Position numbers and translations under genes: made by a program
The notes under the pieces: model-generated
Databases searched by the model: none
What the model was told of the DNA's origin: nothing
The model's input: only the letters and a program-made list of their open reading frames with translations
Shown: one piece after another, positions 905-54,247 of the stretch
Layout: every line of letters begins with the position of its first letter
Position numbering within the stretch: position 1 is the first letter of the stretch
Assembly: GCA_965200955.1 (NCBI GenBank)
Contig: OZ241742.1
Span: forward strand, 2,951,072-3,015,071
Origin: Rhodothermales bacterium
GTDB lineage: Bacteria > Bacteroidota > Rhodothermia > Rhodothermales > Bin80
Direction of reading: 5' to 3'
Length of the DNA: 64,000 nt

Positions 905-936
905 ATTGAACAGAGCATTTCTTTGACGACAGTAGA

Positions 937-1595
937 TCATCTTTGTGATGCGACCATCAGATCTTTTGGTATGCATTCTAAAGTAATTCTTAGAGTCGTT
1001 TCCTTCTTATTTGGAGCCACTTACCAAATGTCGGCATGTGCTATAAAAATGGAAGCCTCATTATTTTTTGCGACTTGCTTTCCAGTAATTGGATCCTTGT
1101 CAAGATATGGTGTGGGTTGTATACGTAACATAATGTGTCCAAAGACAATATTGTTACTACGCAGGTTGGCTGTCTCTGCTAGCTGTTGTACAAAGTAGTT
1201 GTGCTTGTTCTGATTATAACACTTACAACACCGAGAATTAAATCATCTCGTGAAATTGCTATATCAACACTCTTCTGAGGCTTTTGCAAAACCTCAGATT
1301 TTTCGTAGAAATATTGCTCTGAAACACCTGTGACGTATTTTTTAGAGTTGACTGGGAGGTTTTGCAAAAGGTTCTTCTCATAGTATTTATCTGGAACTTT
1401 CTGTTCCTTACCCCCACTTTGGGACAATCCTTGAATGACATATTGTTTACCAAGTACATCCGTTAATTCGGAGATAATCCAGCCATGGAGCACCTTGATT
1501 TTCTGATTTGATCGGGGCCCATGATCTACATAAGATTGGTAGGAGTCCTGAACAGCATTGAGAAGTCTTTCCTTAAAGTTGCGTCCTTCAATCAT
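937..1595 (-). pseudogene. putative type II restriction endonuclease, decayed (1 frameshift near 1225, in-frame TAA near 1020)
   Basis: MIEGRNFKE... starts 8 nt inside the methylase stop. It reads VDIAISRDDLILGVV then, in another frame, KCYNQNKHNYFVQQLAETANLRSNNIVFG (a D...VxK PD-(D/E)XK-like core). It continues past a TAA to ...IPKDLMVASQR. The + strand ORF 923-1198 is the antisense shadow. Confidence 0.45.
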
Positions 1596-3076
1596 TTTGA
1601 GCGTAAATTTTTGGAGAAATAGGGAAGTCTTGAATGTAACGTTTCGCATAACTGAACCATCCACCTCGAAATGGCTGTGCAAACATTCTAATATGCTGAT
1701 CCATTTCTGGGGAATTCAGTTCATTGATCAAATCCTCAAGCGAAATGTTAATTTTGGGCTTCACACAATACCCTGAATAGGATAGAGTGTCTGGATCATT
1801 ACATATTTGAAAATTAGGCTCAGGATTCATCGTTGATGTTAGAATTTTTCGCCCCATAGCACTACGAATGGACACTTCACGTCCGTAACCATTCCACTTC
1901 ATTGGGCTAAACGTCCCCTTATCCCGCCCAAGTAAGCGGTCTTTATTTTCAAATAGCCATGAATATGCGAGCGGATATACCTCAGCAAACTCTTTTTCTG
2001 GGAGTAGTTTTCCAGTTTCAGAATAGGGGTAAATTGCGACGCGTTCAATCTTGTCTTTGCCATCTTTACGGACGGAGGCCTTCAGAATGCGACGTATTGC
2101 CCCTGTCTCAATGCGGCGAGGAATATCATTCAGGGCCACGGTGACATATTCTGACTCCCATTGAATCACAGGAGCTATGAATACTTTATCTGCAAGCGTC
2201 TGAATTCCCACTCGAATTTCTGCAATATTACCCAGCTTTAAGGATTGATTTGAATAGGATGTATCACTCTTGTTATTGACGATGCCCACCGTGCATGCAA
2301 TTTAATAAGATCACACGAATTGGAAAAATCCCCGTCAATCCAGTAATAGGTTTTTGTGGGAATACTGCGTTCACCTTTCCGAATATGAGCTATACATGTG
2401 TAAGTCGAAACACCTGAAAATACTTGATGGTCTCGAAAATCCCAAAGAGATACGATACCATGATTCGCATTTAAATCATGACGCATTGGTGCCCCAGCCT
2501 GATTGCGAATCCATCCGCTAGGGGAGATAAATAACAGGTTTCCTGCTTCTATTAAGAGTCTCAACCCTAACTCATAAAAGACGATGTACAAATCACTTGA
2601 ACCTTGAAAGTAGCTCCAATCTCCCGCATATATTTTGTCTCTACGCTCAGATTCAAGATGCTGAATACGAACATAATGAGGGTTTCCTACACCCAATCAA
2701 AAGAGTTTTCATCTTGATGCCATGCATCCAGAGCATCTACGACACGAATACGCCAAAAATCGTTAGAATAATGCTCTCCGAGAATGGCATGTTCGGCCAT
2801 GGAAAGGCGTTCTCTGCTATGATGTGCAGCTGTTGCATCAATATCAAATCCTGTTAACTGGCTAAGAGTAGATAAATATAAAGGCTGAGATTCTTCAGGG
2901 GCTTTACGCAGTCGTGGACAAATCTCCTCTGCTATTGGAATAAGAAAATCTCCCGATCCACATGCTGGATCACAGATTCAAACATCCTTCAATGATTCCA
3001 TGAACACCGTATTCAGCATTCTATGGACAATGTCAGATGGCGTATATACTTTATCGAAGTATTTTGCCAGATCCAT
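1588..3076 (-). pseudogene. gamma-class N6-adenine DNA methyltransferase (Eco57I/TaqI-like with TaqI_C-type specificity domain), decayed
   Basis: ATG at 3076 gives MDLAKYFDKVYTPSDIVHRML...SLKDV. An in-frame TGA (2978-2980) comes just before motif I ICDPACGSGDF. FDWV then shifts -1 at about 2697 into motif IV GNPHY. A second shift lies in the 2238-2289 overlap. The C-terminal LGNIAEIRVGIQTLADKVFI is TaqI_C-like. Confidence 0.8.
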
Positions 3077-3673
3077 TGATGTTAAGGTTCAGATGTGGTA
3101 TTTTCATACCATTCCAATGAATGATTAAACCGCAGGGATTCTTTCAATCTTTGTTGAAACATTCGGGAACTATATCGCAAAATCACAAGGGATATAACTC
3201 CCCAAAATATACATAATTTTGATGAATTTAAGGATGTAATTCTCTTTCTTATTGATACGGAAGATCCGAGATCTATATCATCAAGCCGGAAAAAACGTTT
3301 ACTTCGGTTACAATATGAATGAACCAGTAGCGTCCAGCTTCCATGCAAAACCAATCAAAAAATCAAACCTGAATAGATGAGTAACATCATCCTGAGGATA
3401 TAATCACACTTTCCAATCAACCTATCATCCCACTCAACCCTTCCAGTGATAGATGATTGCAACTTCAAGGTGAAGTAGTTCAGTCAAAGGATGATAAATG
3501 AGGCGGATTGATGGAACGAAACCATGTAGAAATAAACACCGAATTTATCTACTTCTAATGTTACACATTTTTTCCATCATGAACAACTATGCTCATGGAT
3601 CATCAGAAATAACACTCTATTTCTAAGTATTTGAGATAACTATATTTGAGCATCAATGAAAGGCAGCTGAATA

Positions 3674-6600
3674 TTATTGGACACGAAGGAAGTTTCCATG
3701 GTGTTCAGATTGTCCCCCAGCTGATGAAACATGGACTCTATATATGTATACTCCATTGGATAGACCGTCACCGCTGATGGCAAATTGATTCCCCCACCCT
3801 ACTCCAAATTCCTTAGGTATTGTTGTCAATACACTTCGCCCCATGAGATCAAAAACCTCAACTACTATACTCGACGGCGACGGAAGATCAAACTTTATAT
3901 GGGTCCTCTGAGAAAATGGATTTGGATAATTACCATGCAAGATAAAGTTTTTAGGTATCCCAGTATCTTCGGAGGAAACGGGTGACACCACTTCAATTGA
4001 AAATGAAATACCTGCCTTCTGAAGATTTGTGTCCGTTGCCGAATACTCATACCGCGTTTGGTTGAACGTCATCACTGGGGTTCCACTGATGGCTCTGGAC
4101 TCGTCGTCAAACGTTAATCCACTGGGTAGGTCTGGTTGAAGAGTGTACGTAATGGGCGGTTGACCTCCCACCGCCTCTGGTAAAACAATAGGGGTAATGC
4201 TCTCACCTCTCGTGTAGGATTGATCTTGAATGTCACTCGTGAAGGTGAACCCTGAGCATGAGGGACCACGTACCGTAGAAATTCGCTTCAGCCACTGCTG
4301 AAACTCAGCATCCGACGGGGCACATAACTGTTGTCCTCCAAAATCTAATTCTTCAAGTTTGGTCAGTTGCATCAAAGTTCTCGGCAACGTACCACTCAGT
4401 TCATTGTGAGAGATGATCAACTTACGAAGCTCTGATAGTTGACCAAATTCTTCAGGAATTACGCCAGATAATTGATTTCGGGAAAGATTAATATTTCGCA
4501 ATCGCCGCAGCTGGCCTAATTCCTTGGGGATCTCGCCTGATAGTACATTGTTGTGAAGATATAGAAAAATGACTCTGGTCAGATTTCCTAAATTTTTGGG
4601 AATAGGTCCAGTCAAAGAATTGTTCTCCATCGAAATGATCCCGGCATTGACTAAATTACCTAATGCATCGGGAATCTCACCGCTCAGAGAATTATCCTTC
4701 AACCCAAGTACATCTATCTGTGAGAGATTTCCTAACTCCCCTGGAATTATACCCCTAAGGTTATTGTTTTCCAAATTTAGATGTGTCAGAGCAAGTCCTG
4801 TCAACTTCACTCCATACCAACTAATGAGATCTGTGAAGGTATTCACATTCGTAGCATTCCAATTTTTATTGTTATGCCAACTGTCTCCATTGGTAGAATG
4901 ATATAGAGCATTCAAAGCAGACAGGGTAATATTTGTTTGGAGATTAATCCCGAATGTAAAGACATCCACATCATCAACAAACGCTCCCTCACGAATACGA
5001 GGATAAAAGTGCATGGTTTGTCCCAAACCCGCATTCGTTCCAACTTTAAAACGAAATACTACATCCATTGAATCATTGCTAGGCAAGTGACCGATTAGTA
5101 TCTCAGGCTGCTCCAGAGTAATGAACGGATTCAATACTGAAGGCACCATTTCTATGGTAGCATTTTGGGCATCTAACAAGTGATTGATAAGTTGAATGTT
5201 GATGGTCACCTCATCACCTGAATCAATCTGGCGGTCGCCATCATCATCAATCCAAGACCACTCTCGAACACGAATTCCAGGAAACTGTGGTGGTTGTAAG
5301 CTTGTGTATGCATTGATAAACCCACGACCTAACCGTCCATGGAGATATCCAAGATTATCATCATCAATATTTTCACTTGAATGTCGGAGATGCTCTCTCA
5401 ACCCATCAGCGGTCATCTCAGGAAAGCGGGCTTTAGTCAATGCAGCTATACCAGCGACTAACGGTGCAGAATAGGATGTACCATTACGGGCGAAATATCG
5501 GTTCTGCAGATCTGTAGTAATGATATTCACTCCTGGTGCAAACACATCTACGGTCTTACCATAAGCAGAAAACCTTGCCAATCTGCGTGAATCTCGTTCA
5601 GTTGAACCAACGGACAATACCCTAGAGTACCTCGCAGGATAATGAGGAAAATCCTTGGAGTCAAATGATCTGTTACCAGCTGATGCTATGACTAAGGATC
5701 CCAAATCAGTCGCCAGATCAAGGGTTTCGGCAACAGATCGCGATGGTTCAACAGGTACAAAATCAGTTTTCCCCCAACTGGCATTGATAATATCTGCACC
5801 ATTCATAGCTGCATACAAAACCCCTTCATAAAAGTAGTCTTGTTCAAAGGGTGCACAGTCTACTTTGATATGCATCAACTGTGCATTCCATGCTGCTCCA
5901 GCAATGCCAATTCCATTGTCTCTGACAGCACTGGCAACGCCCGCTACAGCCGTTCCATGATATCCTCCTGAATTCTGCTCATTGATCACACCTGGGTCAT
6001 GATTCAAAACATCTTGATCGCAGAAATTGACTCCCCGAATATCATCAACAAATCCATTCTGATCATCATCTATATTATTTCCAGCAACTTCATCTACATT
6101 CACCCACTGATTAGCCAAAAGATCCTCATGATTCCACTCTGTGCCAGTATCTACAATCGCGATCACCACATCGGATAATCGTTCTGCTCCCTTGATCAAC
6201 TCCCATGCCTCTGGTAATCTTAGATGATTTAAATAACCCTGTTGATCATAAAACGGATCATCTGGTTCCTCGCCTTGATGATCTTCAATGATCTGGTGGA
6301 CATGAACTGGCTCGGCATAAGTAACCCCTTCCTCTTTCATGAAGTCCCTTGCGATTTGATTCGGTGCTACATCGGCATAATAATGGACATAATAGGTGCG
6401 TTGCAATGCACTGAGATTTTTTGCAATCGTGTGCGTAGATTCCAAGTAGTCCAGAAATGGATACATACGTGTAATGGAATAGACACCATATTGAGATGCT
6501 TTATCATCAAATCCATGCAATCCCGTCTTGGTCACATCATGACCCATATATATATTCGGTTCAAATTGAACCACAATAACCTGGGTTGCATATCCGGTAT

Positions 6601-6685
6601 CCGATTGTTGTGCTAAAACAGGACACAAAACAGAAAACAAAACGATAATACCAAACACATATTTATACATTGGTCGTTCGTTCAA
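3674..6685 (-). CDS. secreted S8 subtilisin-like peptidase with plant-type LRRs, Ig-like (He_PIG-type) domain and T9SS C-terminal sorting domain
   Basis: Has a signal peptide and the catalytic triad contexts VDTGTEWNHEDL, HGTAVAGVASA and GTSYSAPLVAGIAAL. About 8 LRRs follow the pattern LxxLxLxxNxLSGxIPxxLGxL. ITYTLQPDLPSGLTFDDESRAISGTP is followed by NYPNPFSQRTHIKFDLP...GVYIYRV. Confidence 0.9.
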   Translation of the reverse strand: MNERPMYKYVFGIIVLFSVLCPVLAQQSDTGYATQVIVVQFEPNIYMGHDVTKTGLHGFDDKASQYGVYSITRMYPFLDYLESTHTIAKNLSALQRTYYVHYYADVAPNQIARDFMKEEGVTYAEPVHVHQIIEDHQGEEPDDPFYDQQGYLNHLRLPEAWELIKGAERLSDVVIAIVDTGTEWNHEDLLANQWVNVDEVAGNNIDDDQNGFVDDIRGVNFCDQDVLNHDPGVINEQNSGGYHGTAVAGVASAVRDNGIGIAGAAWNAQLMHIKVDCAPFEQDYFYEGVLYAAMNGADIINASWGKTDFVPVEPSRSVAETLDLATDLGSLVIASAGNRSFDSKDFPHYPARYSRVLSVGSTERDSRRLARFSAYGKTVDVFAPGVNIITTDLQNRYFARNGTSYSAPLVAGIAALTKARFPEMTADGLREHLRHSSENIDDDNLGYLHGRLGRGFINAYTSLQPPQFPGIRVREWSWIDDDGDRQIDSGDEVTINIQLINHLLDAQNATIEMVPSVLNPFITLEQPEILIGHLPSNDSMDVVFRFKVGTNAGLGQTMHFYPRIREGAFVDDVDVFTFGINLQTNITLSALNALYHSTNGDSWHNNKNWNATNVNTFTDLISWYGVKLTGLALTHLNLENNNLRGIIPGELGNLSQIDVLGLKDNSLSGEIPDALGNLVNAGIISMENNSLTGPIPKNLGNLTRVIFLYLHNNVLSGEIPKELGQLRRLRNINLSRNQLSGVIPEEFGQLSELRKLIISHNELSGTLPRTLMQLTKLEELDFGGQQLCAPSDAEFQQWLKRISTVRGPSCSGFTFTSDIQDQSYTRGESITPIVLPEAVGGQPPITYTLQPDLPSGLTFDDESRAISGTPVMTFNQTRYEYSATDTNLQKAGISFSIEVVSPVSSEDTGIPKNFILHGNYPNPFSQRTHIKFDLPSPSSIVVEVFDLMGRSVLTTIPKEFGVGWGNQFAISGDGLSNGVYIYRVHVSSAGGQSEHHGNFLRVQ

Positions 6686-8053: not shown

Positions 8054-9207
8054 TTAACCTACGTCTTCTTTTGCCAGCCGAAGCCTTTCCTTGTGGCGTT
8101 TAAGTTCTGACTTCAGCCAGTCATGCATAGATGGAATGGGTATTGAATATGCTTGATCGTCTTTTACGATCACTCCCTTTTCCATGAACTTATTAAATAT
8201 ATCTTCCGCTTTCTCTGCATCATGCTCTTTCTTGAATTCTGAAATGATCATTTTTTTAGTGAAGGATGCTCCGGCTTGGACACCATTAATCGCCTGGGCT
8301 TAACATAGTACATCGTCACCATCCATCTGCTCAACGCACTGAGTGTAATACTGAATGCGCCCCTTTCTCCCAACATCCATTACTTCCTTCAAACCTTCGG
8401 GTGTCATCACGCCTCCATTTTCTATCAAATAGTCGGAGGCATTCCTTGCATATGAATGCACATGTCGCGGCCAGCCGAGTGTCTCCTTGACAATCGCATC
8501 AATCCATTCTGCAGGAAATTCTTTGACCCCTGCTTCAACCATAATCCAATCACGAATCACGGCACGCTCTGGATTTTCACTCAATTGCCCCACCTTACTA
8601 TATTCTTTTCGCCAAACCTAGAAATGTCTAAGACTTGCAGGGCAGCCAGCGATGTTCTGAGGCCTGCGGCAAGGAGAACAATGGGCTTACGAAGATGTGC
8701 GTTGTGGATGACATCAAGAAGTTCCTTGACCTCATCACGTTGCTCAACGGGGTACTCAATAGCAGATGATAACTTTTGAGCTTCATCCATCAAGAGGAGT
8801 AGTGGTTTTCGTTTGCGTTTCTTGGGTTTGGAAGATGAGGCCTCCAGCTTAAGAAGATCAGGCACACTCAGAGCAATGGTGTCGGGCATTGGTCTGTTCT
8901 TGTAGCCTAAAGCATTCATCATCTTTCTGGGATCCCAGAGCGTGGCAGGGGTAATCTGAACAACTTTCCATCCCCTCAACTTTGCTCTTTTTTTACACTG
9001 ATCAAGCAATGCTGATTTCCCTGAACCAGAATCACCAACGATAAGATGAATCGTTCCCTTTCTTGATGCACGAACATTGAATAGGATGTTATCAAATTCT
9101 TTCAAGATGGCGGTTCGTCCATGGAAATATGGAGTAGCACCCCGGTCAAACACCCCCGCTCGGGTATATTTGCTTTTCTTTTTAGCCATGAAGGACAATG
9201 TTTTCAA
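8054..9207 (-). pseudogene. AAA/P-loop ATPase (AAA_16/AAA_22-like), decayed
   Basis: Walker A is VGDSGSGKSAL and Walker B is LLLLMDEAQ. The frame shifts at about 8581-8593 (…EKNIVR / LGQLSENPE…). An in-frame TAA at 8300-8302 (GDDVLC*AQAING…) precedes the last 65-aa piece. Confidence 0.65.
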
Positions 9208-9526
9208 GCGTCTTTGTCAACATACAACATCCGTTTGAGTTTCTACAGTGCTAATAGATGGTAACTTAGAAGCGGCACAAAGAGATTTTTTGAGAGCATC
9301 TTGCTGGAATAAATGAAGTCTTGGAACTGACAAAGGCGCAATGATCCGTCAAAACCTACGGAACTCAGTAGACCTATGCTGTAAGCATTCAGTGGATTTG
9401 ACTCATGATTAAGATGATTTTCTAGAACCAGTGAATACTCGGGGCAAATCGTATCATGAGATCAACAGGATAAGATTCTGAGTGCGTGGGATGAGTATGT
9501 CAAATGAGCAACTGGTTCTTATCTAC

Positions 9527-9540
9527 CCTGAATTTCCAAC
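9527..9540. repeat. IS terminal inverted repeat (left)
   Basis: CCTGAATTTCCAAC is the exact reverse complement of 11525-11538. Confidence 0.8.
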
Positions 9541-9577
9541 CACGTTTTTTATGACGTTTCCCTTCGGATCTATCCGT

Positions 9578-11287
9578 TCATTGATATTCAAGAAAGAGCG
9601 TTCTGTCGTGCAACCAAGGAATCTTCCCTTGTGAGCCGATATAGCCTGCACTCCGCAGTTCTGAGTTGTGTGCATGTCGGTTGAATTTCACGATGACCCG
9701 GTCCTTGTCGGTGATGACTTTGCCGGATACTTTGACGAGTTTCTCAAACAGGGTTTTATTTTTCGCGACACGATAAAGCGGGTCCAGTCTTTTTGCAAAC
9801 GCTTGATAGAGCGTACTGGCGATGATGGTGAGTTGTAAATCCAGATCAATGCGCATCGGTATCGTGCTTGACAGTGCGTCCATGTGGAAGAAATTAATGG
9901 CATCCTGGATCGCGTTTTCAACCAGCATGCGCCGTGCGTATCTGTCAATGAGTTCAGCAGCACCCTGCTTCATGTAATTGGTAATCAGCAGGGTTGGCAG
10001 TTCATGTCCAAGTCCTTTGATTGCAAGTTGACGTAGTGGATCTGGATAATTCGTTAGCGTGATTATTTGATCCAGAACATAAGGCTTGGAGTACCTCCGT
10101 CCGATATTGTGAAGTTGGATCTTTTTCCATTGATCACTGGGGGACTGATTGATCTCATCCACGATAGAAGGCGCACGCTTGCGTAAGGTTAGGAAGTAGA
10201 TTCCAAGAGCATTGAGTCTGGCTAGATTTGCATAGGTCGTAAATCGACTGTCAAATACCAGATCCTTTGGAAGCTCGCCTGTTCGCTGTTTCCAACTTTC
10301 AATGAACGAAAAAATGGCATCATTCTGGGTTTCTTTGGTGATTTTAGCATCCCCATAGATCAAGACGCACTGGCTGGCTTCCCGAACCACCAAAGCTAGG
10401 ATCCCACGCTGACGACGGCTACGGCTCGAGACAAAATGTTTCTGCATCAGCAATTCATCTCCATGATAGGGAATCGTATGAAAATCCAAGTCAAATGACT
10501 TTTCCGAGGTTGGTACCCATTGTTGAGCGATCCGATGCCATCCTGCCATCAATCGATCCAGATGATCAAGGTCTACTCTGCTACTGTATTCGGACAAGGT
10601 GGATTTTTTGGGGATCACATTGAGTCCGGCAAACAGGGCTATGCCCTCGTCCAGAACACTTGGCATCACATGATAGGGGCGTCCAATTCCCCAGAGTTTG
10701 AGCGCTAGCAAGGAGCGGATCATGGTCAATGCAGGAATCCTCTTGCTAGTAGGCCAGGTGGTTAGAAGCTGCCCAATGTTGGCATCTGCCAACTCCCGTG
10801 CAAAGAGAAACAAGCCAGCGAACTGTGTAGAAAACGTTGACGACGTTGCGTGGAATCGGCGAACGTCAGCCTGTGCAGCAATGGTCACTTTGGGAGATGT
10901 ACGAATGGAGCGTCGTGGCAATTTTGGGATACCAGCCTGCTTGAGAACAAGTCCGATGGTGGTGGTCCCTGCCTTGATTCCCTCCTCCGATAGGCGTTGA
11001 TGAATCTCGGCATTGGAGAGATGTTCTTTAAGGCGTAATTCAAGGATGCGCTGATCGCGTTTGGAGCGTTGCACCTCTGCGGGGCGGTCAAACAAGGGAA
11101 TCGCCCCCGATTTGCGTAGTTCAGAGGCTAGATTACGGAGGGTTCCCTCATTGAGTCCGAACTGTTTAGCAATGGCGGCCCAGGGTTTTCCCTCAACAAA
11201 ATATGCACGCAGGGCTTCGTAGAGTCTGAGTTTGTGCAGATCGGGATTCAGGAAGAGATGTGCAAATTGTTGGGATGATTTTGTCAT
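9578..11287 (-). CDS. DDE transposase with N-terminal HTH
   Basis: The N-terminal AIAKQFGLNEGTLRNL looks like an HTH. It also has FDLDFHTIPYHGDE and a C-terminal Y-x2-R-x3-E signature (DRYARRMLVEN) typical of the IS4 superfamily. Confidence 0.8.
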   Translation of the reverse strand: MTKSSQQFAHLFLNPDLHKLRLYEALRAYFVEGKPWAAIAKQFGLNEGTLRNLASELRKSGAIPLFDRPAEVQRSKRDQRILELRLKEHLSNAEIHQRLSEEGIKAGTTTIGLVLKQAGIPKLPRRSIRTSPKVTIAAQADVRRFHATSSTFSTQFAGLFLFARELADANIGQLLTTWPTSKRIPALTMIRSLLALKLWGIGRPYHVMPSVLDEGIALFAGLNVIPKKSTLSEYSSRVDLDHLDRLMAGWHRIAQQWVPTSEKSFDLDFHTIPYHGDELLMQKHFVSSRSRRQRGILALVVREASQCVLIYGDAKITKETQNDAIFSFIESWKQRTGELPKDLVFDSRFTTYANLARLNALGIYFLTLRKRAPSIVDEINQSPSDQWKKIQLHNIGRRYSKPYVLDQIITLTNYPDPLRQLAIKGLGHELPTLLITNYMKQGAAELIDRYARRMLVENAIQDAINFFHMDALSSTIPMRIDLDLQLTIIASTLYQAFAKRLDPLYRVAKNKTLFEKLVKVSGKVITDKDRVIVKFNRHAHNSELRSAGYIGSQGKIPWLHDRTLFLEYQ

Positions 11288-11524
11288 AATAAAGTGTGAT
11301 TAAAATAAGAATACCAATATACTAATAAAATAACTAAAAACCAAAAAAAGGGGAATAAAAGGGTCAATGAGAGAAAAATATAGAAAAAATGGCTTAGATT
11401 TAATTTTTAGATTATTATTATATTAGTGATACTATAAATATAGTCACAAAAGAAAATGACAAATAAGACATGTGTCTGCACCATCATTGGTCCTAGACAC
11501 ACTGGAAGATCCTTTAAAGGTGGT

Positions 11525-11538
11525 GTTGGAAATTCAGG
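11525..11538. repeat. IS terminal inverted repeat (right)
   Basis: GTTGGAAATTCAGG is the exact reverse complement of 9527-9540. Confidence 0.8.
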
Positions 11539-11877
11539 CTACCGTTCTATGCCCCGTCTGGATCTACCCACAATGGTCTTTTTTGGACGATTCTCGGAAG
11601 ATTTGGCTCAACCATCAATCCAATCATTATGCTAACAGCTAATCTATTCACTTCTTCACGGTCTATCACCGCCCATACGTCAAAGCAGTTGTAGCAGAAA
11701 GTTTAAGCCTAAAAAATGTCCTGAGACGCGATGCAACTCAACATGAACGAAACCCAAAGTGGAAACTGCCGCCGTAAATCAGATAATGCCTCCTCGGAAT
11801 TTACTACACAAATTCGATGACTTTGGCCTCAGATACTCTCATCATGATATAGGACACCATCTGATTGAGTCAAGTAT

Positions 11878-16759: not shown

Positions 16760-16782
16760 GATTCATTTTGGGTTGAAAGTGA

Positions 16783-36005: not shown

Positions 36006-36016
36006 CTGACTGATAT

Positions 36017-36719
36017 TTACAATCTTTTTAGGGAATAGTGCTCACTACGAAGTTTTCTGAAAGGATTGCCTCGCCTCCTAATAGATTTGGGGATGAAGTG
36101 GATTAATTCAACATGATTGATAAGTGCATATCGAATGCCAGGCCACATATCATCATCTCCAGATACCAAAACAACAGGTTCTTTTGTAAACATGGACAAA
36201 TGAACTAAATCTGTAACGATCATTGAATCCACAAGTTTCTGTTCAGTCCTGTAAAAAGTGTCATCTGGTGTTACACTACATTGATCATGACCACAGATTT
36301 TTCTACGAAAAAAATGAATGTACCCCTGAGAGATAGCATTGACCCTTATCAACGCAGTGTGCGAAAGGAAAACTTTCTAATCTTAGAGGTGGCAGGTTTG
36401 ATCGAGTTCTAAATGTATTTGGAAAATGATTTCCTTCATCACATATTAGAGATGTAGCCAATTCGGGCCGATTAATTTTTATTTTTTGACCTAATACTTG
36501 AACCACTCGCGGAAAACTCCTCTTTATTTGACCAGATAACTTTGATGCTAAGGGTGTCAACTTATATCCTCTATATAACCATCCTCCATACAATCTGCAC
36601 TGTGAAACTTGTGAATCAGAAATTGAGACTGGAGATTTTTCCAGTATTTGTTCTATAATGTTAATGAGTCTCATTTCTTTTAGTCTTCCCAAGTTATCAT
36701 AGTCAATCAGAATGGTCAT
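36017..36719 (-). pseudogene. NYN/LabA-like (PIN-fold) nuclease with Cys4 zinc-ribbon-like insert, split by a +1 frameshift in an A7/T7 run
   Basis: MTILIDYDNL and RLYGGW are NYN N-terminal motifs. HCVDKGQC...SFF then changes frame at 36308-36314 to RRKICGHDQC...EQKLVDSMIVTDL...VVLVSGDDDMWPGIRYA (NYN C-terminal motifs). Removing one A restores a 233-aa ORF. Confidence 0.6.
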
Positions 36720-36783
36720 GGATCAAGTAATCTATCAATGAATGTGTATGGTGTGAAGCAATTATATTATTTCTCTGCTTATT

Positions 36784-37794
36784 TCAAACTTCAACAAAAT
36801 CTCGTCTAACAGCATGAGCAACTTGCTGAAGCTGAACAAATAAGTCAAAAAACTGATCAAGCCTCAGAACCTGCAATCCCCTTTCAGATGCACTGAGCAA
36901 GTCATCATGTCCATCTATGATCGCACCAGCCCCAACGGCCCCAGATGACAATGGAACGACGTAATCCCGAATGCCTACTCCTTGAGAGGGATCTACGATC
37001 ACGGGGAGATGACTTTTGGCTTTCGCAACCGAAACCCCAGAAAGATCAAGAGTATGCCGTGTGGCAACCTCAAAGGTACGAATCCCTCTCTCACACAAAA
37101 TGGCTTGCGAATTACCTGATTTCATGATGTACTCTCCTGACTTGATTCACTCTTGTATAGTCGTAGCCAAACCATATTAAAGTAACTCTGTCCGATAATT
37201 TCTACCAATGCACGCAAGAACTCAAAATTCCGATATAACGAGTTCCCACTTTAAAGTACTCGCATCATTACCAAATTGATCCATGGACTCAGTGGAATCA
37301 ACTTCTAAGATCAGTTTAACTCACATTCAGTAGCTACCTGACACTCCATTTCAACGCTTCCTCTGGATCTGTTGATACTCATGGAACGATGTGTGAGGCT
37401 TGACCATACTTGCACGAATCACAGATACACCTAATAAGACTATCTGAGTAAAACTATCTTTTGAAATTACTCTGTACATTCAATACTTGATAATGCTCCC
37501 ATCAAAATGACTATATTCCCCCACCCCAGTCTGAAATCCATCCACATCAATAATGGATGAATTGGAGCGGCCAGCACGACTGGCTAGTTTTTAGAGTTCG
37601 GTAACGCGTTGCACCTCAGCAACACCACGAAAATTGTTAATGATTCTGTAATCAAATCCAGGCCAAACCATATTAATCCTTAGTACGTTTGGCTGACTCC
37701 ACTGGAACAATGAATCAAACCCAAAGGCATTTAAGTTGGTGATAACGGCTTCAACTTCTTCTTCCGAAGCATGATTTTTCACGATAACAACCAT
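36784..37794 (-). pseudogene. aroF: type I-beta DAHP synthase with N-terminal ferredoxin-like regulatory domain, heavily decayed but still co-linear
   Basis: The N-terminal MVVIVKNHASEEEVEAV... resembles the Thermotoga-type regulatory domain. The middle reads KLASRAGRSNSSIIDVDGFQTGVGEYS...RASMVKPHTSFHEYQ (cf. GGAYKPRTSPYSFQG) with several stops. The C-terminal AILCERGIRTFEVATRHTLDLSGVSVAKAKSHLPVIVDPSQ is preceded by ATTIQE-TGA-IKSGEYI. Confidence 0.8.
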
Positions 37795-37842
37795 GGCAGC
37801 TACGTTTGATTGCGGAGATGTTAGGGTGTCAGTAGTTTCACG

Positions 37843-40657: not shown

Positions 40658-40835
40658 GGAATTAATCAGATATGATCATCCAGAGGATTTAAGAGGTCAT
40701 CACTATCGCTCAGTATTCTGTCGAGAATGCAATACAAGTGTGTATTGCCACCCCATCACCTTGTGCACTGTCTATTGTAAGTCATTCTTTGGCACGCTGA
40801 ATGATGAGATCAGCGTTCACAAATGTACATAAATG

Positions 40836-40908: not shown

Positions 40909-41169
40909 TGTTGGACAGGTTACACGCTAAGTCACAACCATGGTTCCAACCGTGGCATCACGACATCACAATCCTTAAACATAAACAACATGATCGTGCT
41001 ATCACATCAATCTGATGCAATCAATTTTGTGGTTGAACCAAGATATACTCCTATGAACACAGAGGCACCATTGAAACGATTGGCTACCCGTAAAAACGCT
41101 CGGATCATTTCAATCATTCTTTTTGCACGTATCATCGAATACTCATAAAATGACCCACATGCACCTCCG

Positions 41170-41645
41170 TAGAGCCACTGTCGTGAAATTTGGCTATCAT
41201 CCGAAAAACCTACGAACCTGATGGAAGCTTCAAGTTGTTAAGTTCTAATTGAAGCCCTGCTCCCCACTCATTTGAGGGGGAGGCTTCTCATACTCTCTCC
41301 TTCCCGTTATGTCAACACTTCATGTGGACATCTGCAGACCATAAAAGATCAAAAGACAGCTGAGTTGAAGACAAAAATGGATTTGGGGAATTAGAGGGAC
41401 CATAAAGTCCTCAGCCAAATCCGGTTCTTCCTCGTATTGACAGGGGAAACTATTCAATGGTAAATTTTAGGATATCCTGTCCTCCATTCATTCCACTGCC
41501 TTGAAGGTAAACTGCACTGGAGGACTGTAGCCAGAGGGGTTCATTGATGCTTCTGGTTGAAACATCAATCCCAATGGAAGTTCAAAAAGATTCAGAATAT
41601 ATTGGGTTAGGGGCTTGCCCAGATTACTTCTTTTTTTGAATCTCT
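41170..41645 (-). pseudogene. remnant of a T9SS-secreted protein (last Ig-like repeat + sorting domain), multiple stops
   Basis: The minus-strand translation QYILNLFELPLGLMFQPEASMNPSGYSPPVQFTF...VSPVNT parallels IQYTLNLFDLPLGLMFDVSARTISGTP...VVSPVNT of the 43163 gene. The nucleotide similarity is visible (41555-41610 vs 43600-43650). Confidence 0.4.
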
Positions 41646-41650
41646 ACGAA

Positions 41651-42715: not shown

Positions 42716-43162
42716 CTTACAAGTGAATGAATTGACCGCATTTTACGATATTGGGCACTCTTTGTAACAAGCTTAACCGAAGAAATTGAATTTGATGCTC
42801 ATCTTAATCCATCATTGCCACTCATAGAATCGGGGGAGGAAACATTCCAAATCACTTTTTACGACAGAACGAATCCATTTTCATCATGAATATCTGATTG
42901 ATGTCAAGAAAGCAAAACCATCCTACAAAGAACCAAAAAATCTAAACCTTGAAAATAAAATCCGTAAAAATAATCGCCCATCGCCCACTCATTGAACGAT
43001 CCACACAAAACCATAGGATCTATAAATTTAGATCATTCTTTTCTTGACCCTGATAAGTGTTGTAACGATGGAGTCCATACCTACCCATCGTGTCTTATTC
43101 ATGGACTGGAGTGGAACTCGTTCAACGTATGAAGTAACAGATCTTTATACCTACGTCTATCA

Positions 43163-46100
43163 TCAAATACTCGTAAAATGACCGACATAAACATCTGCAG
43201 AACCACTGTCCTGAGATGTAGCCATCATCCGATATACATACGATCCTGACGGAAGCTTCAGATCATCTAGTTCTAATTCAAGACCTGTTCCTGCACTCAT
43301 GCTGACTGGAGACTTTTCATACACACGCCGGCCCGTAATGTCTAACACCTCTACCTGTATTTGAGCGGATCTCGGCAGATCAAACACCAACTGGGTTGAA
43401 TGCACAAATGGGTATGGGTAATTGGAGTGCACCACAAATTCTTCCACCAAATGTGCTTGCTCTTGCGTATTGACTGGAGAAACCACTTCAATGGTACAGT
43501 TCAAGCTATCCTGCCCACCTTTGGTATCCACTGCCATATAGGTAAACGGCCCGGGCGGACTAATGACCATGGGGGTACCACTGATAGTCCTCGCTGAAAC
43601 ATCAAACATCAACCCTAATGGAAGATCAAAAAGATTCAGTGTGTATTGGATTGGAGTCCTCCCACCGGTCACTTCAGGTAAAATAAGCGGAGGAATCGCC
43701 TGCCCTCTTGAATAGGATTGATGATCAATGCTCTCACTAAAGGATAGTGCGTACACTTCAAGATTGAACTTCAGACTGGCCACCATACCCGTAGCATCCT
43801 CTACTGCCCATGTATACAAGGTCTCTGGGGTGATGTTTGAAGGAGTTCCGCTGATCGTACGAGTAGACTCATTTAAAGTTAATCCCTTGGGAAGTGTTGG
43901 TGTCAACGTATAGTCATAAGGCATCACTCCCCCATTTGGTGCAGGTAGACTCCACTCTGAAAGTACAATTCCTACAGGATAGAATTGATTTTCTATAGTA
44001 GTGGCTAAATGATACGACTGCATTCGTCGTTGCATTCCTGATCGGTGATGAAACACTTGCCCCTTCAGAATTGATGGCACTGACCCGATAGTAATGAGTC
44101 GTATTCGGCGGAAGATTTGTATGATCGTAGGAGGTTACCGCAGATCTGGTATTGGATTCTATATCCATCCATCCAGAGATTCCATCAAAAAAACCTTCAA
44201 TCCGGTAACCGGTGATCTCTGCTCCTCCATCAGCAAGAGGTGCAATCCACGAAAGACTGATCCTCGTCGTTCCAGTAGCCGTCGCCGTTAACCCGGTGGG
44301 TGCATCAGGAACCGTGACGATATCGTCGGACTCTGTAGTAGCATTGACCACATCTGAAACTGCCCCTGCACCTGTAGCGTTGAGGGGACTGACACGATAG
44401 TGGCGAACGGTATTCGGCCGCAAAGGACTGTCTGAATATGAAGTGATCGTAGAACCCGTATTGGACTCCAAATCCGTCCATCCAAACGTTCCCGAGGGAG
44501 ACACTTCAATCCACTAACCTGTTATTGGTGCATCTCCATAATCGGATGGAGCATTCCAGGAAAGATTGATCTATTCACTCCCCGAAGCGATTGCTGATAC
44601 ATCTGTTGGCACACTTGGAAGTGCTTCCGATAATGGTTCAGTCGTTGCACTCACCACATTAGAAGAGGCACCTGAACCCTCAGAGTTAACAGCACTGACA
44701 CGATAGTAACGAGTCGTATTTAGAGAAAGATTTGTCTCAGAATATCTGGTCGCCCTAGAACCCGTGTCATCCACTAAATCCGTCCATCTAGATGATCCAT
44801 CTGGAGACACCTCAATCCAATAACCGGTAATCGCCGTGCCTCCATCATCAGATGGTTCATCCCATGATAGATCAATCGTCCTACTCCCAGAAGCTGTCGC
44901 AGTTAATCCAGTGGGAGCATCAGGAATCGTAGTGGCTGGTACTATGGTCGCTTGACTACACTGGAAGCATCACCAGTGCCCACAGAATTGATGGCACTCA
45001 CTCGGTAGTAACGAGTGGTATTTGGCGAAAGATTCGTGTCAGAATTGGTGGTGGTTTTTGAACCCGTGTCCGCCACTATATTCGTCCACTCAGAAGATCC
45101 ATTTGGAGACCCTTCTATCCGATATCCGCGAATCTCTGCTCCTCCATCATCAGATGGGGAGCTCCATGAAAGAACAATGGTCGTACTGCCCGAAGCGGTC
45201 TCAGATACTTGGATAGGTGCACTTGGAAGGGCTTCCGTGCTGGACCCAGTGGTTGCAGAAACGACATTTGAAGAGACACCCGAACCAGCCGTGTTGATTG
45301 CACTGACACGATAGTGGTGAGTCGTATTCGGAGAAAGATTGGTATGAGAGTATCCAGTGACACCTGAATTCGTATTGGACTCCAAATCGATACACCCTGT
45401 CCTTACATTAGAAGAAACTTCAATCTGGTAACCGGTAATGGATGCACCTCCGTTATTGGATGGTGCGTTCCACGATAGGTTGATGGTCGTACTTCCCGAA
45501 GGTGCAGCAGATAGTGAAATGGGTGCGTCTGGGACGGTGACCGTAACTGCGGGAGCAGTGGTTGCACTGACCACATTTGATGATGTACCCAAACCAGCGG
45601 AATTGATAGCCCGTACACGATAGTGACGGGTCGTGTTCGGAGAGAGATTACGGTGGGAGTATTGGGTGGCATCTGAATCCGCATTGGACACTAAATCCTT
45701 CCACCCAGATGTTCCATTTGGAGATACTTCAATCCTGGTAGCCTGTAATGGATGCGCCTCCATTATCAGATGGTGCCCCCATGAAAGATCAACCGTTCTA
45801 CTCCCAGAAGCCGTAGCGGTTAATCCAGTGGGTGCATCAGGGACGCTTACCGTCTCTTCATCCGCCGGATCACTCCTCACATATACGGACAGGGAAGGTC
45901 TTCCTGTACCAATCGAATTGATCGCGCTCACCCTATAGTATAGAAATGTTGAGGGCTTTAAATTCTTGTGAGTATAACCAGTGGTATCTGAACGAGTGTC
46001 CTGTTCCACAGCATACCAACCAGATCCAGATTTTAAGGCTTCAATCTGATAGGCAGTGATCGTTGCTCCCCCAGTATTTGATGGCGCTTGCCAAGAAAGA

Positions 46101-47556
46101 TCAATCATCGTACTACTCGAGGCGGATGTTTTTAGGTTAGTCGGTGCATCAGGAAGGGAATAAGTAGTCGCTTTGACTACCTTTGATTTTGTACCTGCTC
46201 CCTTAAGTTTTGATAACGCTAACACGGTAGTAATGAGTTGACCCTAGTTTCAGATTACTGTGAGTGTATGTAGTCTCAGTGTTTTCGGTATTGACATCCA
46301 GTGGTGACCACACTAATTATAGCGTGAGGTTTCTATCCTGTATCCGGTGATTTCCGCTCCCCCATCATCTGATGGTGGATTCCAAGAAAGTTTGATCTAA
46401 TTACCACTGATGGGAGTTGCAGACAGGTCGGTAGGAACTGCTGGAGCCATAAGCGGCCGAGAAGTCGTTGCCTTCGCGATATTGGATGCTTCACCAGTAC
46501 CAATACACTCACTGCACTTACGCGATAGTAACGGGTCACTCCAGGAGAAAGAAACTTATCGGAATACGTCGTAGAACTAGAAAATCCTCTTTGAATCTCC
46601 CAGTCTGATCTTCCATTTGGAGAAACATCAATTCTGTATCCATTAATTTCAACACCTCCATTATCGGTCGGTGCACTCCACGAAAGATTAATCGTATTTT
46701 CACCTGATGCCTGAGCCTTCAATCTCGTCGTCGCATCTGGAATATTAAACGTTCTGAATGAGCCTGATTCAGACCATGATGAATGAAAGCCACCAGGACC
46801 CAAAGATTGGGTACGAAACCGAAATACCGTTACCGGTGTACTTCAAGGAACAGTATAGAATGTTTGTAAGAGATCCACCAGTAGAAATTCTTGACCATGA
46901 TGAACTACCTGTTTTAACTTCAAGATGAATCCCTCTACTTGGTATTTGAGCATCTGGAAAGCTCCATTTAATCAATAAAGTATAGACATCAATAGCACGT
47001 GAGTGCAACGTAATGTTCAAGATGATCGATTGATGAATTTGTAACAAAGTTTCATCAGATTCAAAATAAAATGGATGTCCCATATTGCCCTACTCTACCA
47101 TGTATGCAATCGGAGAAGAAAAAACTGATGGAGCAGAGCACTGTTCTACTGATGTGACTCCTGACAAACCTCCATCATAATGCACAACCATGCGATGGGA
47201 ATCTTCATACTCATGTTCATCATCGTCATTTGAAAAAACTTCTTGTACTATCAATTTCTCTGTGAAAATTCTATGCTGAGGATGAAGGATTATGTGATCC
47301 ACAGACTCAGCACTCTGGCAGTAGTACCCATCCTTTGTAAGGATGATGTGTTTTGAGAAGTCGCAGATGATCTTAAATCATCGGATATCTCTGGTTGATC
47401 CTCAGAAAAAATATACCGCTTCAACGTAGGTTCAGGATGTTCCTAAACATGACTGTTCTGGGAGTAGACCATCAAATATGTACCAACGAAATCATACTCT
47501 GTCGTAATAACTTCACCGAAAAGAGATGATAGGACAAATAAAAAAACATCAGCATA
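43163..47556 (-). pseudogene. giant T9SS surface protein (signal peptide, ~9-10 FN3 repeats, 2 Ig-like He_PIG repeats, Por sorting domain) broken into at least 7 pieces
   Basis: Six ORF-track pieces, plus unlisted frames, all read the same repeat: PDAPTGLTATASGSxTIxLSWxAPSxxGGAxITGYxIEVSPxGxSxWxDL...NLSPNTTxxYRVSAINSxG. In-frame TAGs lie at 44571-44573 and 44514-44516. Frameshifts lie at about 44945, 44030, 46230-46330, 46480 and 46800. The C-terminus is NYPYPFVHSTQLVFDLP...GSYVYRM. Confidence 0.75.
44080..46800 (-). repeat. tandem array of diverged ~0.3-kb (about 100-104 codon) FN3-encoding repeats
   Basis: LSW motifs recur at aa 43, 147 and 250 of the 427-aa piece. The copies are clearly related at nucleotide level but not identical. 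Confidence 0.8.
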
Positions 47557-48854: not shown

Positions 48855-51594
<2,740 letters not shown>

Positions 51595-51737
51595 CTAATA
51601 TACAACAAAAATTAATAAAAGTTGCATTTTTGTGAAATTTTGTGAAAATAGTGCCGATTTGTTGTCATATTTATGACCCGGGTAAATAGCTAAGGTCTAA
51701 GATAACCCCTTCTGCGACTTGTGTTACGTGTATCTCT

Positions 51738-52900
51738 ATGATCTGTGATAGATTAAAACTATTCAAAAAATGGGGGAACGATTTAGTCACAAGACTAATT
51801 CGTCCGAAATACTGCAAGTCAACGAAAATGAGGAAAGCCACATTAATCTTCAAGTCATGTGTTCGTATCATCAGGAAAAAAGAACTTGTGCATCACTGGT
51901 CTTTTCTTGATACACACGGTGAAAAACTACCGGCACATGCATTGATGGCATTCAAGTATTGGGAATACGAGATCCAATATTACTCTCTCAATGTTCTTCG
52001 TGATGTTAGCCTACATTTAGCGGCTCATGGCTCATTTTGGAGGCCTTTTCTCAAAGATTCTGAGCTTACCCCATCAATGAAAATGGAAATTGAATCCGTT
52101 CTCAAAGATGTGAATGATCTCATTGTGTCATCCCATGCCAGTTTTAACCAAGTAAAATCTCAATTGTGTCATCTGCAATCTCTTGTTCCTTTTGTCAGAT
52201 GAAGATTCTATTTCCATTGAGGCTGTCCCAACTCCTGCTTTTGAGATTGTCTCTAAAGCAGAAGTTAAGGTCGGCACTTTTACTGGCGCTAAAATTCCAC
52301 TCTCCTGACATGGAGAAGGTACTCAAAGCCTTGCAGTTTTGATGCTATTTTTCGCTTTTCTGAAAAGTCATCCGAAAAATACTTCAATTTTAGCATTGGA
52401 GGAACCAGAAGCTCATCTACATCCATCAGCAACCCGAATTTTATGGATGCTCATTCAAGATTGTGCACATCAACGAATAATTTCAACCCACAGCGGTGAA
52501 CTCATTTCAGGTGCAGAAATGGTGATATTAGACATCTATCCCGAACCTCCGATGGAATTCAGGCATTTCAAATATCTAATGATCATTTATCTGACGAGAA
52601 AACCTTGAAATTCAATCACCATATTAGAAGAAGTAGAGGAGAATTGTTATTCGCACGTTGCTAGTTATTAGTAGAAGGGCAAACTGAAGTATGGATTTAT
52701 GAAGCAGCCGCTCAAACTTGTAACATTGATCTCCATCAAGCAGGCATCCTATTCGTTGAATTTCAACAATCTGGTGGAGTAGAAATGCTCGTCAAAGTGG
52801 CTAATCCCTTAGGAATTGAATGGTACTGAGTTGGAGATAACGATCATGAGTCTTCTAAAATTTAAAGCACGTCACTATTTTCGAGAAAAAGTGTCCCTCA
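51738..52900 (+). pseudogene. OLD-family (ABC-ATPase + Toprim) nuclease, 5'-truncated and decayed
   Basis: IPLS-TGA(52306)-HGEGTQSLAVLMLF...ILALEEPEAHLHPSA...IISTHSGEL, with a frameshift near 52520. Then RGELLFARC-TAG(52662)-LLVEGQTEVW...GIEWY-TGA(52827)-VGDNDHE (Toprim ExG...DxD). No Walker A region remains. Assignment of the first ORF (51738-52202) is weak. Confidence 0.55.
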
Positions 52901-53117
52901 TCATCGTATAGGGTGGTTTGACTAGCAGAGGTAGGAAACGACTTATGAAGTCTACCAATGGGTGTTTGAACAACGAAATCGAGTACCCGTAGGACATTAG
53001 AATCGTGCCGACATCGTGACTCTAAACCCCCATTAGATGGAACAGCAGATAGTTCCACGAGGTGCATTAGACTTTGAATTGATGAAAGTTTGAACCAGTT
53101 CAACATTACGTAGTAAC

Positions 53118-53384
53118 GTGCATGTTAAGAATCTTAAACATGAAATTTTCATGATACCTCAAGATGTTGAGAAAGTCTGCAAAACCAAGGTGGAACTTCT
53201 TGCTGCACTTCAAGATGTAGAAGTATCTGACGAAGTGTGGATTGAATTATCTAACATCGTGGGTAAATTCTTTGCCCAACGAGCAACATTGAAAGCCAAT
53301 CAAGTTGTAGATAAAGAAGGCTGGACTGAAGATGATTTTCACCGTCTTGCACATACGCACATGCGTACTCCTTACCGTCCTTGA
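53118..53384 (+). CDS. putative antitoxin of the adjacent PIN toxin
   Basis: An 88-aa acidic protein that ends 3 nt before the PIN gene ATG. The call rests on position and size only. Confidence 0.4.
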   Translation: MHVKNLKHEIFMIPQDVEKVCKTKVELLAALQDVEVSDEVWIELSNIVGKFFAQRATLKANQVVDKEGWTEDDFHRLAHTHMRTPYRP

Positions 53385-53387
53385 ACA

Positions 53388-53805
53388 ATGTGCCTCCGAT
53401 CCGTAATTGATACGAACATTCTTCTAGTCTCAATTTCGGACAGATCACCTTATCATTGGTTTTTGATGGGCTACATAAGGGTTTCTATTCCCTATTATTA
53501 GTACGCAGATTGCTCTTGAATACGAAGAAGTAATTGGGCAAAAAATGGGACAAAGCGCAGCCTCAGATGTGATTGAAGCCCTTGAATGTCTTTCTAACGT
53601 ATTGCTTATCTCTAAACACTATCAATGGAACATGATAAAATCTGATCCAGATGATAACAAGTTTACGGATTGTGCAGTTGCCGGAAGAGCTGACTGTATA
53701 GTAACCTACGATAAGCATTTCAAAGAACTGAATCAAACTCATTTCCCTTCTATCTCAACGGTAACTCCCGAAGAATTCAAAATCTTACTGAATAGTCCAT
53801 CTTGA
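53388..53805 (+). pseudogene. PIN-domain toxin (TIGR00305-like), two frameshifts
   Basis: Frame a reads MCLRSVIDTNILLVSISDRSPYHW. Frame b reads FDGLHKGFYSLLL, after the shift at the T5 run 53460-53464. Frame c reads TQIALEYEEVIGQ...KSDPDDNKFTDCAVAGRADCIVTYDKHF, after the shift near 53500. Confidence 0.65.
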
Positions 53806-54247
53806 ATGATGTGTTGCGGTCTATAACTATCAATGCAAGGTTTTGCCCATTTTTTCACTTAGAAACAATTCTTAATTAATTCTTTCGACCGCCAATTCAT
53901 CTTTTCTACACAGGTTTGTATATCCGAACAATTCGTAATGCGAGAAGAATTAGTTACACCAATCAAAACGATATAGTGCAGTTGATGGACATTAGTCTTC
54001 AAGTTGATACTCCTGAGCTATCCAAGGACAACACAAACAGTCCTCCACTTAACTTTAACCTTTTTGTACTATGAACAACCTACAACCTTTCTCTGTATCG
54101 GGAGAATATCCATGCGAATCAAGTTCCTATCAAAATACGAATTGATGCTACATCTCAAGTACGCGATGCTATTTTCATGCTAATCAAAGATCTCGGAATG
54201 AGTCCAATCAAATGCGTGATGGAGTATGTGGAGTCCTTCTGGTTCGC

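Follow-up and report, generated by a model that had tools for sequence, protein, structure and literature searches.

Nine of about 45 genes in a 64-kb stretch of Rhodothermales DNA (contig OZ241742.1; the whole stretch is termed the window) were found to be broken. These are real pseudogenes that have probably arisen through ongoing, lineage-specific mutational decay under relaxed selection. The broken genes comprise a restriction-modification (R-M) pair, an AAA_16 ATPase gene, a NYN-domain gene, aroF, an FN3 adhesin gene together with a degenerate copy of its 3' end, an OLD-family nuclease gene and a PIN toxin gene (Table 1). The window has a G+C content of 44% and represents 1.5% of a genome of 4,189,794 bp. 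It holds 36 intact protein open reading frames (ORFs), one tRNA-Gly and an S-adenosylmethionine (SAM) riboswitch; intact coding sequence (CDS) accounts for 68% of the bases, pseudogenes for 18% and neither class for 14%. Housekeeping genes that are intact include nadA, gap, pgk, those for ribosomal proteins L9, S18 and S6 and for release factor RF1 (prfA), lptB, asd, metX, the O-acetylhomoserine sulfhydrylase gene, gltD, gltB and folD.

The original prediction, made by a model from the letters of the window, had listed eight broken loci. All were broken when compared with protein profiles, intact homologues and the alleles of sister strains, the R-M pair counting as two genes, and every stop codon that had been named was present at its position. 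The accompanying statement that nearly every accessory gene is dead was overstated, since an S8 protease with leucine-rich repeats (LRR), a TonB-dependent receptor and its neighbouring DUF4249 gene, a 767-amino-acid (aa) protein, a small ORF upstream of the PIN gene and an insertion sequence (IS) transposase are intact. The prediction had counted some 30 intact core genes; there are 36 intact ORFs, of which about a third are not core.

Table 1. Broken genes, mobile elements and intact accessory features located in the window
Feature	Coordinates	Strand	Basis or remarks
Type II restriction endonuclease pseudogene	1024..1631	-	tblastn of ~240-aa homologues P0239, P0241 and P0245
95-bp miniature inverted-repeat transposable element (MITE) inside endonuclease gene	1277..1371	.	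15-16 bp terminal inverted repeats (TTTTGCAAAACCTC core), ~5-bp target duplication
Eco57I/TaqI-like N6-adenine methylase pseudogene	1591..3076	-	Pfam Eco57I/N6_Mtase match
S8 subtilase with LRR and He_PIG, ~998 aa, intact	3674..6670	-	Pfam; borderline match, just sub-threshold, to a type IX secretion system (T9SS) tail
AAA_16/STAND-like ATPase pseudogene	8057..9189	-	Homologues are single proteins of 370-440 aa
IS element, intact	9524..11541	-	17-bp terminal inverted repeats, 569-aa DDE transposase, weak IS1380-like match
Accessory island, intact TonB-dependent receptor and DUF4249	25745..29093	-	Absent from L001/L002
767-aa protein, intact	33702..36005	-	~12 bp downstream of NYN, same island
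NYN-domain pseudogene	36020..36722	-	Fragments joined give 233 aa, the exact family length
aroF pseudogene (3-deoxy-D-arabino-heptulosonate 7-phosphate (DAHP) synthase, type I-beta with ferredoxin-like domain)	36787..37842	-	Compared with intact syntenic 347-aa orthologue (L001)
Degenerate copy of adhesin 3' end (He_PIG region and C-terminal tail)	41130..41650	-	Between tRNA-Gly and asd
FN3 adhesin pseudogene	43163..47556	-	Many fn3 repeats, He_PIG, weak sub-threshold Por_Secre_tail match; N-terminal limit uncertain
OLD-family (Gabija GajA-like) nuclease remnant	51690..52900	+	PADLOC GajA match, E = 2e-107
77-codon ORF, intact	53151..53381	+	Directly upstream of PIN; position and size only
PIN_3 toxin pseudogene	53385..53805	+	One frameshift near 53480-53500

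Authenticity of the lesions

Exact-protein look-up recovered same-species contigs with 97-99.4% identity to the window, which represent at least four further lineages. These lineages are designated B (GCA_026709435.1 and SAMN13943199), C (JGI 3300009877 and SRR22390445), E (JGI 3300009846 and three SRR runs) and F (GCA_026708685.1 and SAMN13943200). A scan of a genome collection with RF1 led to Rhodothermales, the nearest species representatives (L001 and L002) having an RF1 identity of 81% and a nucleotide identity of approximately 70%; the OstA-like protein yielded no relative when used as query in a genome-collection scan. The window shares with L001/L002 the gene order gltD-sulfhydrylase-metX-asd-tRNA-(184-aa ORF)-ostA-lptB-aroF-prfA-S6-S18-L9-dsbD-sbcB. 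This synteny covers 23.8-56 kb of the window and leaves the R-M pair and the ATPase gene outside.

Comparison of these assemblies indicates that the breaks are real mutations and not sequencing or assembly error. The fragments of aroF and of the ATPase, NYN, endonuclease, methylase, GajA-like and PIN genes are colinear with intact homologues or profiles. Lesions of aroF and the NYN gene, TGA 2978 in the methylase gene and certain lesions of the adhesin and endonuclease genes are repeated in independent assemblies. Because they recur, base for base, in the assemblies of other lineages, those of NYN and aroF, TGA 2978 and the common adhesin lesions are real. An indel was defined as private where at least two other lineages agreed against the window. 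Fourteen such indels were found, nine in pseudogenes, five in intergenic DNA and none in 28.8 kb of intact CDS; the chance of all 14 missing intact CDS is 0.375^14, or about 1e-6. The comparison is not circular, because for every gene that bears a private lesion there is another lineage in which it is broken at some other point. None of the three private frameshifts whose context was checked lies in a homopolymer. The private lesions are known from the assembly of this genome.

The original prediction had held that the lesions were not random error. Both the repetition of lesions in independent assemblies and the avoidance of intact CDS by private indels bear it out. An origin in sequencing, assembly or polishing errors, perhaps in low-coverage, strain-variable regions, is very improbable. 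Such errors would be consistent with the private lesions, for which there is no second assembly of the same lineage, and with the NYN frameshift, which falls in a homopolymer of seven bases. However, an independent metagenome-assembled genome (MAG) carries exactly the same lesions in NYN and aroF, other assemblies again show TGA 2978 and the stops of the adhesin gene, and five lesions are base substitutions creating stops; the position of private indels and frameshifts and the separate breaks of the same genes in other lineages point the same way.

That the interrupted ORFs are still expressed, as split genes or through programmed frameshifting or readthrough, can be virtually discounted. The frameshifts of aroF occur in compensating pairs and a 65-aa downstream ORF of the ATPase gene is kept in all lineages, as might be expected of recoding, but all three stop codons are found among the lesions, at positions that differ by strain. 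Furthermore, the SVK motif of the endonuclease and the NPPY motif of the methylase are destroyed, gene ends are deleted, and lineage E does not keep the alternation of frame in aroF. An alternative genetic code or stop-codon readthrough was rejected, since TAA, TAG and TGA each end normal genes as well as appearing among the lesions. Phase variation was likewise rejected, the NYN lesion alone being situated in a homopolymer.

Selection on broken and intact genes

Within the stretch syntenic with L001/L002, five of nine accessory genes were broken compared with one of 14 core genes (Fisher P = 0.018). The ratio of nonsynonymous to synonymous polymorphism (pN/pS) was 0-0.2 for the genes of L9, S6 and S18, prfA and ostA, and 0.3-0.6 for other intact genes with few changes, on small counts of 3-40 changes per gene. 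Calculation of dN/dS (the corresponding ratio of substitutions) for the fragments, proposed in the original prediction, had a divided outcome. Values of pN/pS were near neutral (0.7-1.1) for the adhesin (0.8-1.1), OLD nuclease (0.82), endonuclease (0.79) and ATPase (0.73) genes, whereas the methylase (0.36) and aroF (0.42) gave lower values.

The precision of these ratios is limited by mosaic divergence, which varies from 1% to 10%. Lineage B differs from the window by 76 single nucleotide polymorphisms over 14 kb, yet positions 35967-39059, including NYN and aroF, are 100% identical. Divergence from lineage E (L090) reaches 10% in the gene for the 767-aa protein and approximately 8% in the 5' half of NYN and the 3' end of aroF, compared with 0.6% in the 3' half of NYN and about 1% elsewhere. 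This pattern suggests recombination tracts at the borders of islands.

Restriction-modification locus

The endonuclease gene has been disrupted by insertion of the MITE and by a frameshift at a conserved SVK motif (~1218-1240) with the loss of approximately 6 aa, and approximately 90 C-terminal residues are absent. The lysine of SVK is presumed to be the catalytic lysine. Both the SVK frameshift and the truncated 3' end are present in lineage C. The identity of the endonuclease rests on its position beside the methylase gene and on the homologues of ~240 aa; the repaired protein had no match in Pfam, PADLOC or structure searches, and tblastn against plasmids was likewise empty.

The methylase gene is interrupted by TGA 2978-2980 and by 1-bp deletions at 2689 and 2283. 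Substitution of the alleles of sister strains (2980 A>G, +T after 2689 and +A after 2283) restored an ORF of 500 codons, colinear with positions 82-572 of 607 of the PADLOC MTase_II model. Motif I is present as DPACGSGDFL, while motif IV reads NPHY here as against NPPY in strain L083 of lineage C. TGA 2978 is common to lineages B and F, with CGA found only in lineage C, and the frameshifts at 2283 and 2689 are private to this genome. Other lineages possess methylase frameshifts of their own, at 2551 and 1674 in C and at 1865 and 2357 in B, and the R-M locus of lineage F has both a frameshift at 1520 and an IS110 insertion.

Because the SVK lesion is common to two lineages, while most methylase lesions are lineage-private, the data suggest that the endonuclease was inactivated before the methylase. 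This order is read from which lesions are common, and the occurrence of TGA 2978 in three lineages weighs against it; of the two genes, that of the methylase remains under the stronger constraint.

In L083 the MITE is located at 4505-4599, upstream of the methylase gene, with a target duplication of its own, and the site that is occupied in either strain is empty in the other. A diverged copy, ~70% identical, lies at 25637-25723 between sbcB and the DUF4249 gene, and a further copy in the same genome is translated within the called protein P0257. A pattern scan of metagenome contigs for the MITE returned 0 matches, from a collection apparently without these samples.

ATPase gene and neighbouring insertion sequence

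Three lesions of the ATPase gene are private to this genome, namely a 1-bp deletion at 8591, TAA 8300-8302 and an in-frame deletion of 27 bp at 8814, and the ORF regains full length with the alleles of sister strains. Interpretation of TAA 8300 as a natural gene boundary was rejected, as homologues read through this point as one protein. Lineages B, C and F instead have TAG at 8294-8296. Positions 8294-8302 are TAA-GCC-CAG here and TTA-GCC-TAG in B, C and F, corresponding to Leu-Ala-Glu in the intact homologue P0001. Two divergent alleles may have acquired these stops, two codons apart, by separate nonsense mutations, or one stop may have reverted before another arose. The downstream ORF of 65 aa noted above is called separately. 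The AAA_16/STAND-like family is highly paralogous, with many members of 370-440 aa on a few contigs of 3.7-4.2 Mb, this genome included, and several of these paralogues are truncated in some strains.

The nearby IS element occurs in this genome alone. At its site a spacer of ~0.7 kb is present in lineages B and F, and lineage C carries what appears to be a type III R-M system of full length (1042-aa Res, 528-aa Mod).

NYN gene, 767-aa protein and aroF

The NYN gene contains a single +1 frameshift, due to one extra A in the run at 36308-36314. The family label derives from precomputed PF01936 matches in several homologues; the NYN sequence of the window is itself sub-threshold in Pfam, at 17 bits. 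The sequence is identical in lineage B, and an intact gene of 233 aa is found in lineage E and in an NCBI MAG that probably belongs to lineage F. The adjacent 767-aa protein had no match in Pfam, NCBIfam, PADLOC or PDB. Its gene differs from that of lineage E at 10% of nucleotides, compared with ~1% for the flanking core genes, with a dN/dS of 0.19. The two genes may constitute a two-gene defence module.

Eight frameshifts and four stops (TAA 37680, TAA 37591, TAA 37177 and TGA 37147) were identified in aroF. The gene is dead in this genome, in lineage B, where its sequence is 100% identical, and in lineage E, which has most of the same lesions; L001/L002 retain an intact copy. Its G+C content in the window has drifted down. 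Here aroF is an old, heavily broken pseudogene at a conserved syntenic position. It had been classed with the accessory genes, an assignment that has to be withdrawn for a conserved biosynthetic gene intact in the nearest relatives. Its loss raises the possibility of reliance on a host or community for aromatic amino acids. The eight frameshifts form four nearby +1/+2 pairs that restore the frame, an alternation broken by the indels of lineage E; the pairing could be due to chance, to aligner bias or to a trace of compensated frameshifts that preceded the death of the gene.

FN3 adhesin

The adhesin gene has accumulated about eight frameshifts and three stops. TAG 44571, TAG 44514 and several of the frameshifts, one near 44960 among them, are common with lineages B and E, both of which carry extra stops of their own, and indels at 44003, 45734, 45775, 46205 and 46315 are private to this genome. 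The sequence between tRNA-Gly and asd, originally described as a T9SS remnant, is indeed broken, but is now recognised as a decayed copy of the adhesin 3' end: positions 41130-41603 are 72% identical to adhesin positions 43158-43652, with many indels. This copy had no Pfam match. In two stretches of low G+C content, 47557-48854 beside the adhesin gene (1.3 kb, G+C 0.40) and 53806-54247 beside the PIN gene (0.44 kb), neither a convincing ORF nor a family match was found; both may be remnants of greater age, decayed past recognition.

OLD nuclease remnant and PIN gene

The OLD remnant spans positions 125-449 of 569 of the GajA model, both ends being absent. It is interrupted by three nonsense codons, AGA>TGA at 52306, TGG>TAG in the codon at 52662 (base 52663) and TGT>TGA in the codon at 52827 (base 52829), which are private relative to lineage C; a frameshift near 52600 is common with that lineage. 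No GajB helicase gene was found after the remnant; the small ORF that precedes PIN begins ~250 bp further on. As in Gabija, an OLD-type TOPRIM domain can be recognised, together with the ATPase domain in its C-terminal part. Unlike a Gabija system, comprised of the OLD-family ATPase-nuclease GajA and the helicase GajB, the locus is without the Walker A segment and GajB and has the three nonsense codons and several frameshifts. The locus is a Gabija remnant and not a working system. Lineage C shows 30 differences from the window in the OLD region, of which 29 are packed into 1.45 kb, and this likewise suggests recombination at an island border.

When its frameshift is repaired, the PIN protein covers positions 1-115 of 115 of PIN_3. 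No sister-strain sequence spans this gene. The intact 77-codon ORF directly upstream had no family match and is possibly the antitoxin of PIN.

Intact non-core genes and breaks in sister strains

The S8-LRR protease is full length in lineages B and C and has a pN/pS of 0.28. A 1-bp deletion in one lineage E strain (L091), at the equivalent of window position 27047, divides the TonB receptor into parts of 252 and 463 aa. Compared with lineages B and E, the window itself has lost single bases at 29127 and 29141, in the 5' leader of the receptor gene and upstream of the start codon assigned in those lineages; both deletions are private. A gene for a PVC-type heme protein (2.9 kb) had been cited as an uninterrupted core gene; it is intact in the window, where it ranks with the non-core genes, but in lineage B a CAA>TAA nonsense mutation occurs at codon 282 (window 13924-13926).

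The SAM riboswitch (51458-51578, minus strand; 77.5 bits) lies upstream of the O-acetylhomoserine sulfhydrylase gene. A mechanically called ORF of 536 aa at 49984-51594 runs through it, and the true start is the methionine of MSQNGQ, giving ~443 aa.

Origin of the decay

Where a function was no longer needed, nonsense mutations, small indels, IS and MITE insertions and end deletions would pile up at a near-neutral rate, and co-existing strains would thereby gather different breaks in the same genes. The order of loss suggests an addiction logic, with the endonuclease broken before the methylase, and the PIN toxin broken while the small upstream ORF is open. The window fits early, drift-type genome erosion, in which dead DNA is kept, coding density is low and mobile elements are active. 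The mobile elements that differ between strains are the private IS, the MITE at different sites here and in L083, and the IS110 of lineage F. Because dead DNA is kept, the intact coding density is 68% and IS and MITE are active, drift or relaxed selection is favoured over the streamlining that had been proposed; nine pseudogenes and a genome of 4.19 Mb also argue against streamlining. The proposal that decay affects defence, surface and toxin-antitoxin (TA) functions holds in so far as the losses are concentrated there, but aroF is dead, and because the heme-protein gene is broken in a sister strain, erosion at the population level is not confined to these functions.

Relative to the L001/L002 backbone, the window contains four insertions, at 25.1-29.4, 33.5-36.9, 42.7-49.1 and 51.6-54.2 kb. 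With the exception of aroF, the pseudogenes in the stretch covered by L001/L002 lie inside these insertions or, for the adhesin-tail remnant, in the short spacer between tRNA-Gly and asd, and are absent from L001/L002. Gene content at the R-M pair and ATPase locus varies among strains. The G+C content of most islands is 0.37-0.42 compared with 0.44-0.49 for core genes, the exceptions being the ATPase and adhesin genes at 0.45-0.46. This location of the pseudogenes in low-G+C islands or strain-variable loci is compatible with ordinary turnover of horizontally acquired defence and adhesin islands, which would serve for a short time and then degenerate, in a healthy, possibly free-living genome, with no genome-wide erosion or host restriction, as are the differences in content between strains (IS, type III R-M system or nothing at one site; IS110 in lineage F), the genome size, and the purifying selection on core and some accessory genes. 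Turnover of this kind nevertheless appears unlikely to explain the window. It does not account for aroF, a syntenic, biosynthetic gene long dead in all lineages seen, nor for the heme-protein and TonB receptor genes broken in sister strains, and the dead DNA has been kept, not deleted. Pseudogenes usually make up a few per cent of genes, and the window, with nine of about 45 genes and 18% of bases dead, is far above this.

The same genes have been struck independently in up to four lineages, and two different premature stops occur two codons apart in the ATPase gene, as would be expected if the loss of defence, toxin and adhesin genes had been selected, for example as a means of avoiding autoimmunity, sparing cost or escaping host recognition. 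Adaptive inactivation is, however, improbable. Parallel breaks are also expected neutrally once a gene is dead, and most of the genes carry an older, common lesion; pN/pS is near 1 with no sign of positive selection, and neutral decay needs fewer assumptions. A broader suggestion, put forward tentatively and held with low confidence, is that the parallel knock-outs in at least four co-existing lineages of one probably invertebrate-associated species followed a change of lifestyle, through which, recently and across the whole population, phage defence and surface adhesion were either freed from constraint or selected against. If true, the strains would provide a natural time series, from which the sequence of loss in R-M, TA and Gabija modules could be read directly.

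Several points weigh against decay under relaxed selection as the explanation of the window. It represents only 64 kb of a genome of 4.19 Mb, itself not small, and may be an atypical run of islands. Constraint is evident in several accessory genes, which are intact. The pN/pS of the methylase is 0.36 and not 1, which fits only with recent inactivation, and the counts behind all such ratios are small. Given the mosaic divergence, some of the lesions treated as independent may be recombined alleles that were already dead. The private lesions are taken from the assembly, and host association is drawn from record labels.

These labels make an association with a marine invertebrate (sponge or coral) plausible: the label ROBB21-1 on same-species contigs appears to point to a metagenome study of sponges, and the name of a related MAG, Plut_, hints at a coral host. 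Sponge Rhodothermia were described by Robbins et al. 2021 (PMC8163846), the study to which the label may refer; a search of the literature for BioSample SAMN13943199 found no match. No report of pseudogene-rich sponge Rhodothermales was found in the literature.

Comparison with known systems

Mycobacterium leprae is among the known examples of genome erosion. Incipient erosion has been described in recently host-restricted bacteria, including Sodalis glossinidius (PMC7067036) and 'Streptomyces philanthi' (PMC8092579). The window resembles these three cases in its frameshift and nonsense pseudogenes, low coding density and active IS and MITE, and in the retention of dead DNA, the loss of a biosynthetic gene and the lower G+C content of pseudogenes. 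It is unlike erosion of the Sodalis type in that the genome is 4.19 Mb, the housekeeping genes of the window are all intact and decay is mostly in acquired islands; moreover, it is known from 64 kb and the host is putative.

R-M systems decay to orphan or dead methylases, and TA pairs decay by inactivation of the toxin, in accordance with the logic of addiction modules. Similarly, the endonuclease lesion is common to lineages while most methylase lesions are private, and the PIN gene is frameshifted with the upstream ORF open. Unlike known examples of R-M and TA decay, the endonuclease is without a profile match and the antitoxin is putative.

Sponge symbionts are characterised by enriched R-M systems, FN3 and cadherin adhesins and eukaryote-like repeats (Robbins et al. 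2021, PMC8163846). An R-M system, an FN3 adhesin and an LRR protein are likewise present in this genome, but here the R-M pair and the FN3 adhesin are dead. Surveys of MAGs that count R-M, FN3 or defence domains would score such dead fragments as functional, and gene callers split these pseudogenes into several 'proteins'.

Decay of this kind is a known process (PMC7067036, PMC8092579, PMC9336565), to which the window adds a further example, and the parallel, lineage-specific lesions are its most useful feature. Several strains are at hand that show decay in progress, in a lineage (Rhodothermales) for which the literature searches brought up no previous account of pseudogene accumulation. If the pattern extends genome-wide, this bacterium would represent an example of early-stage genome erosion outside the insect-symbiont models.

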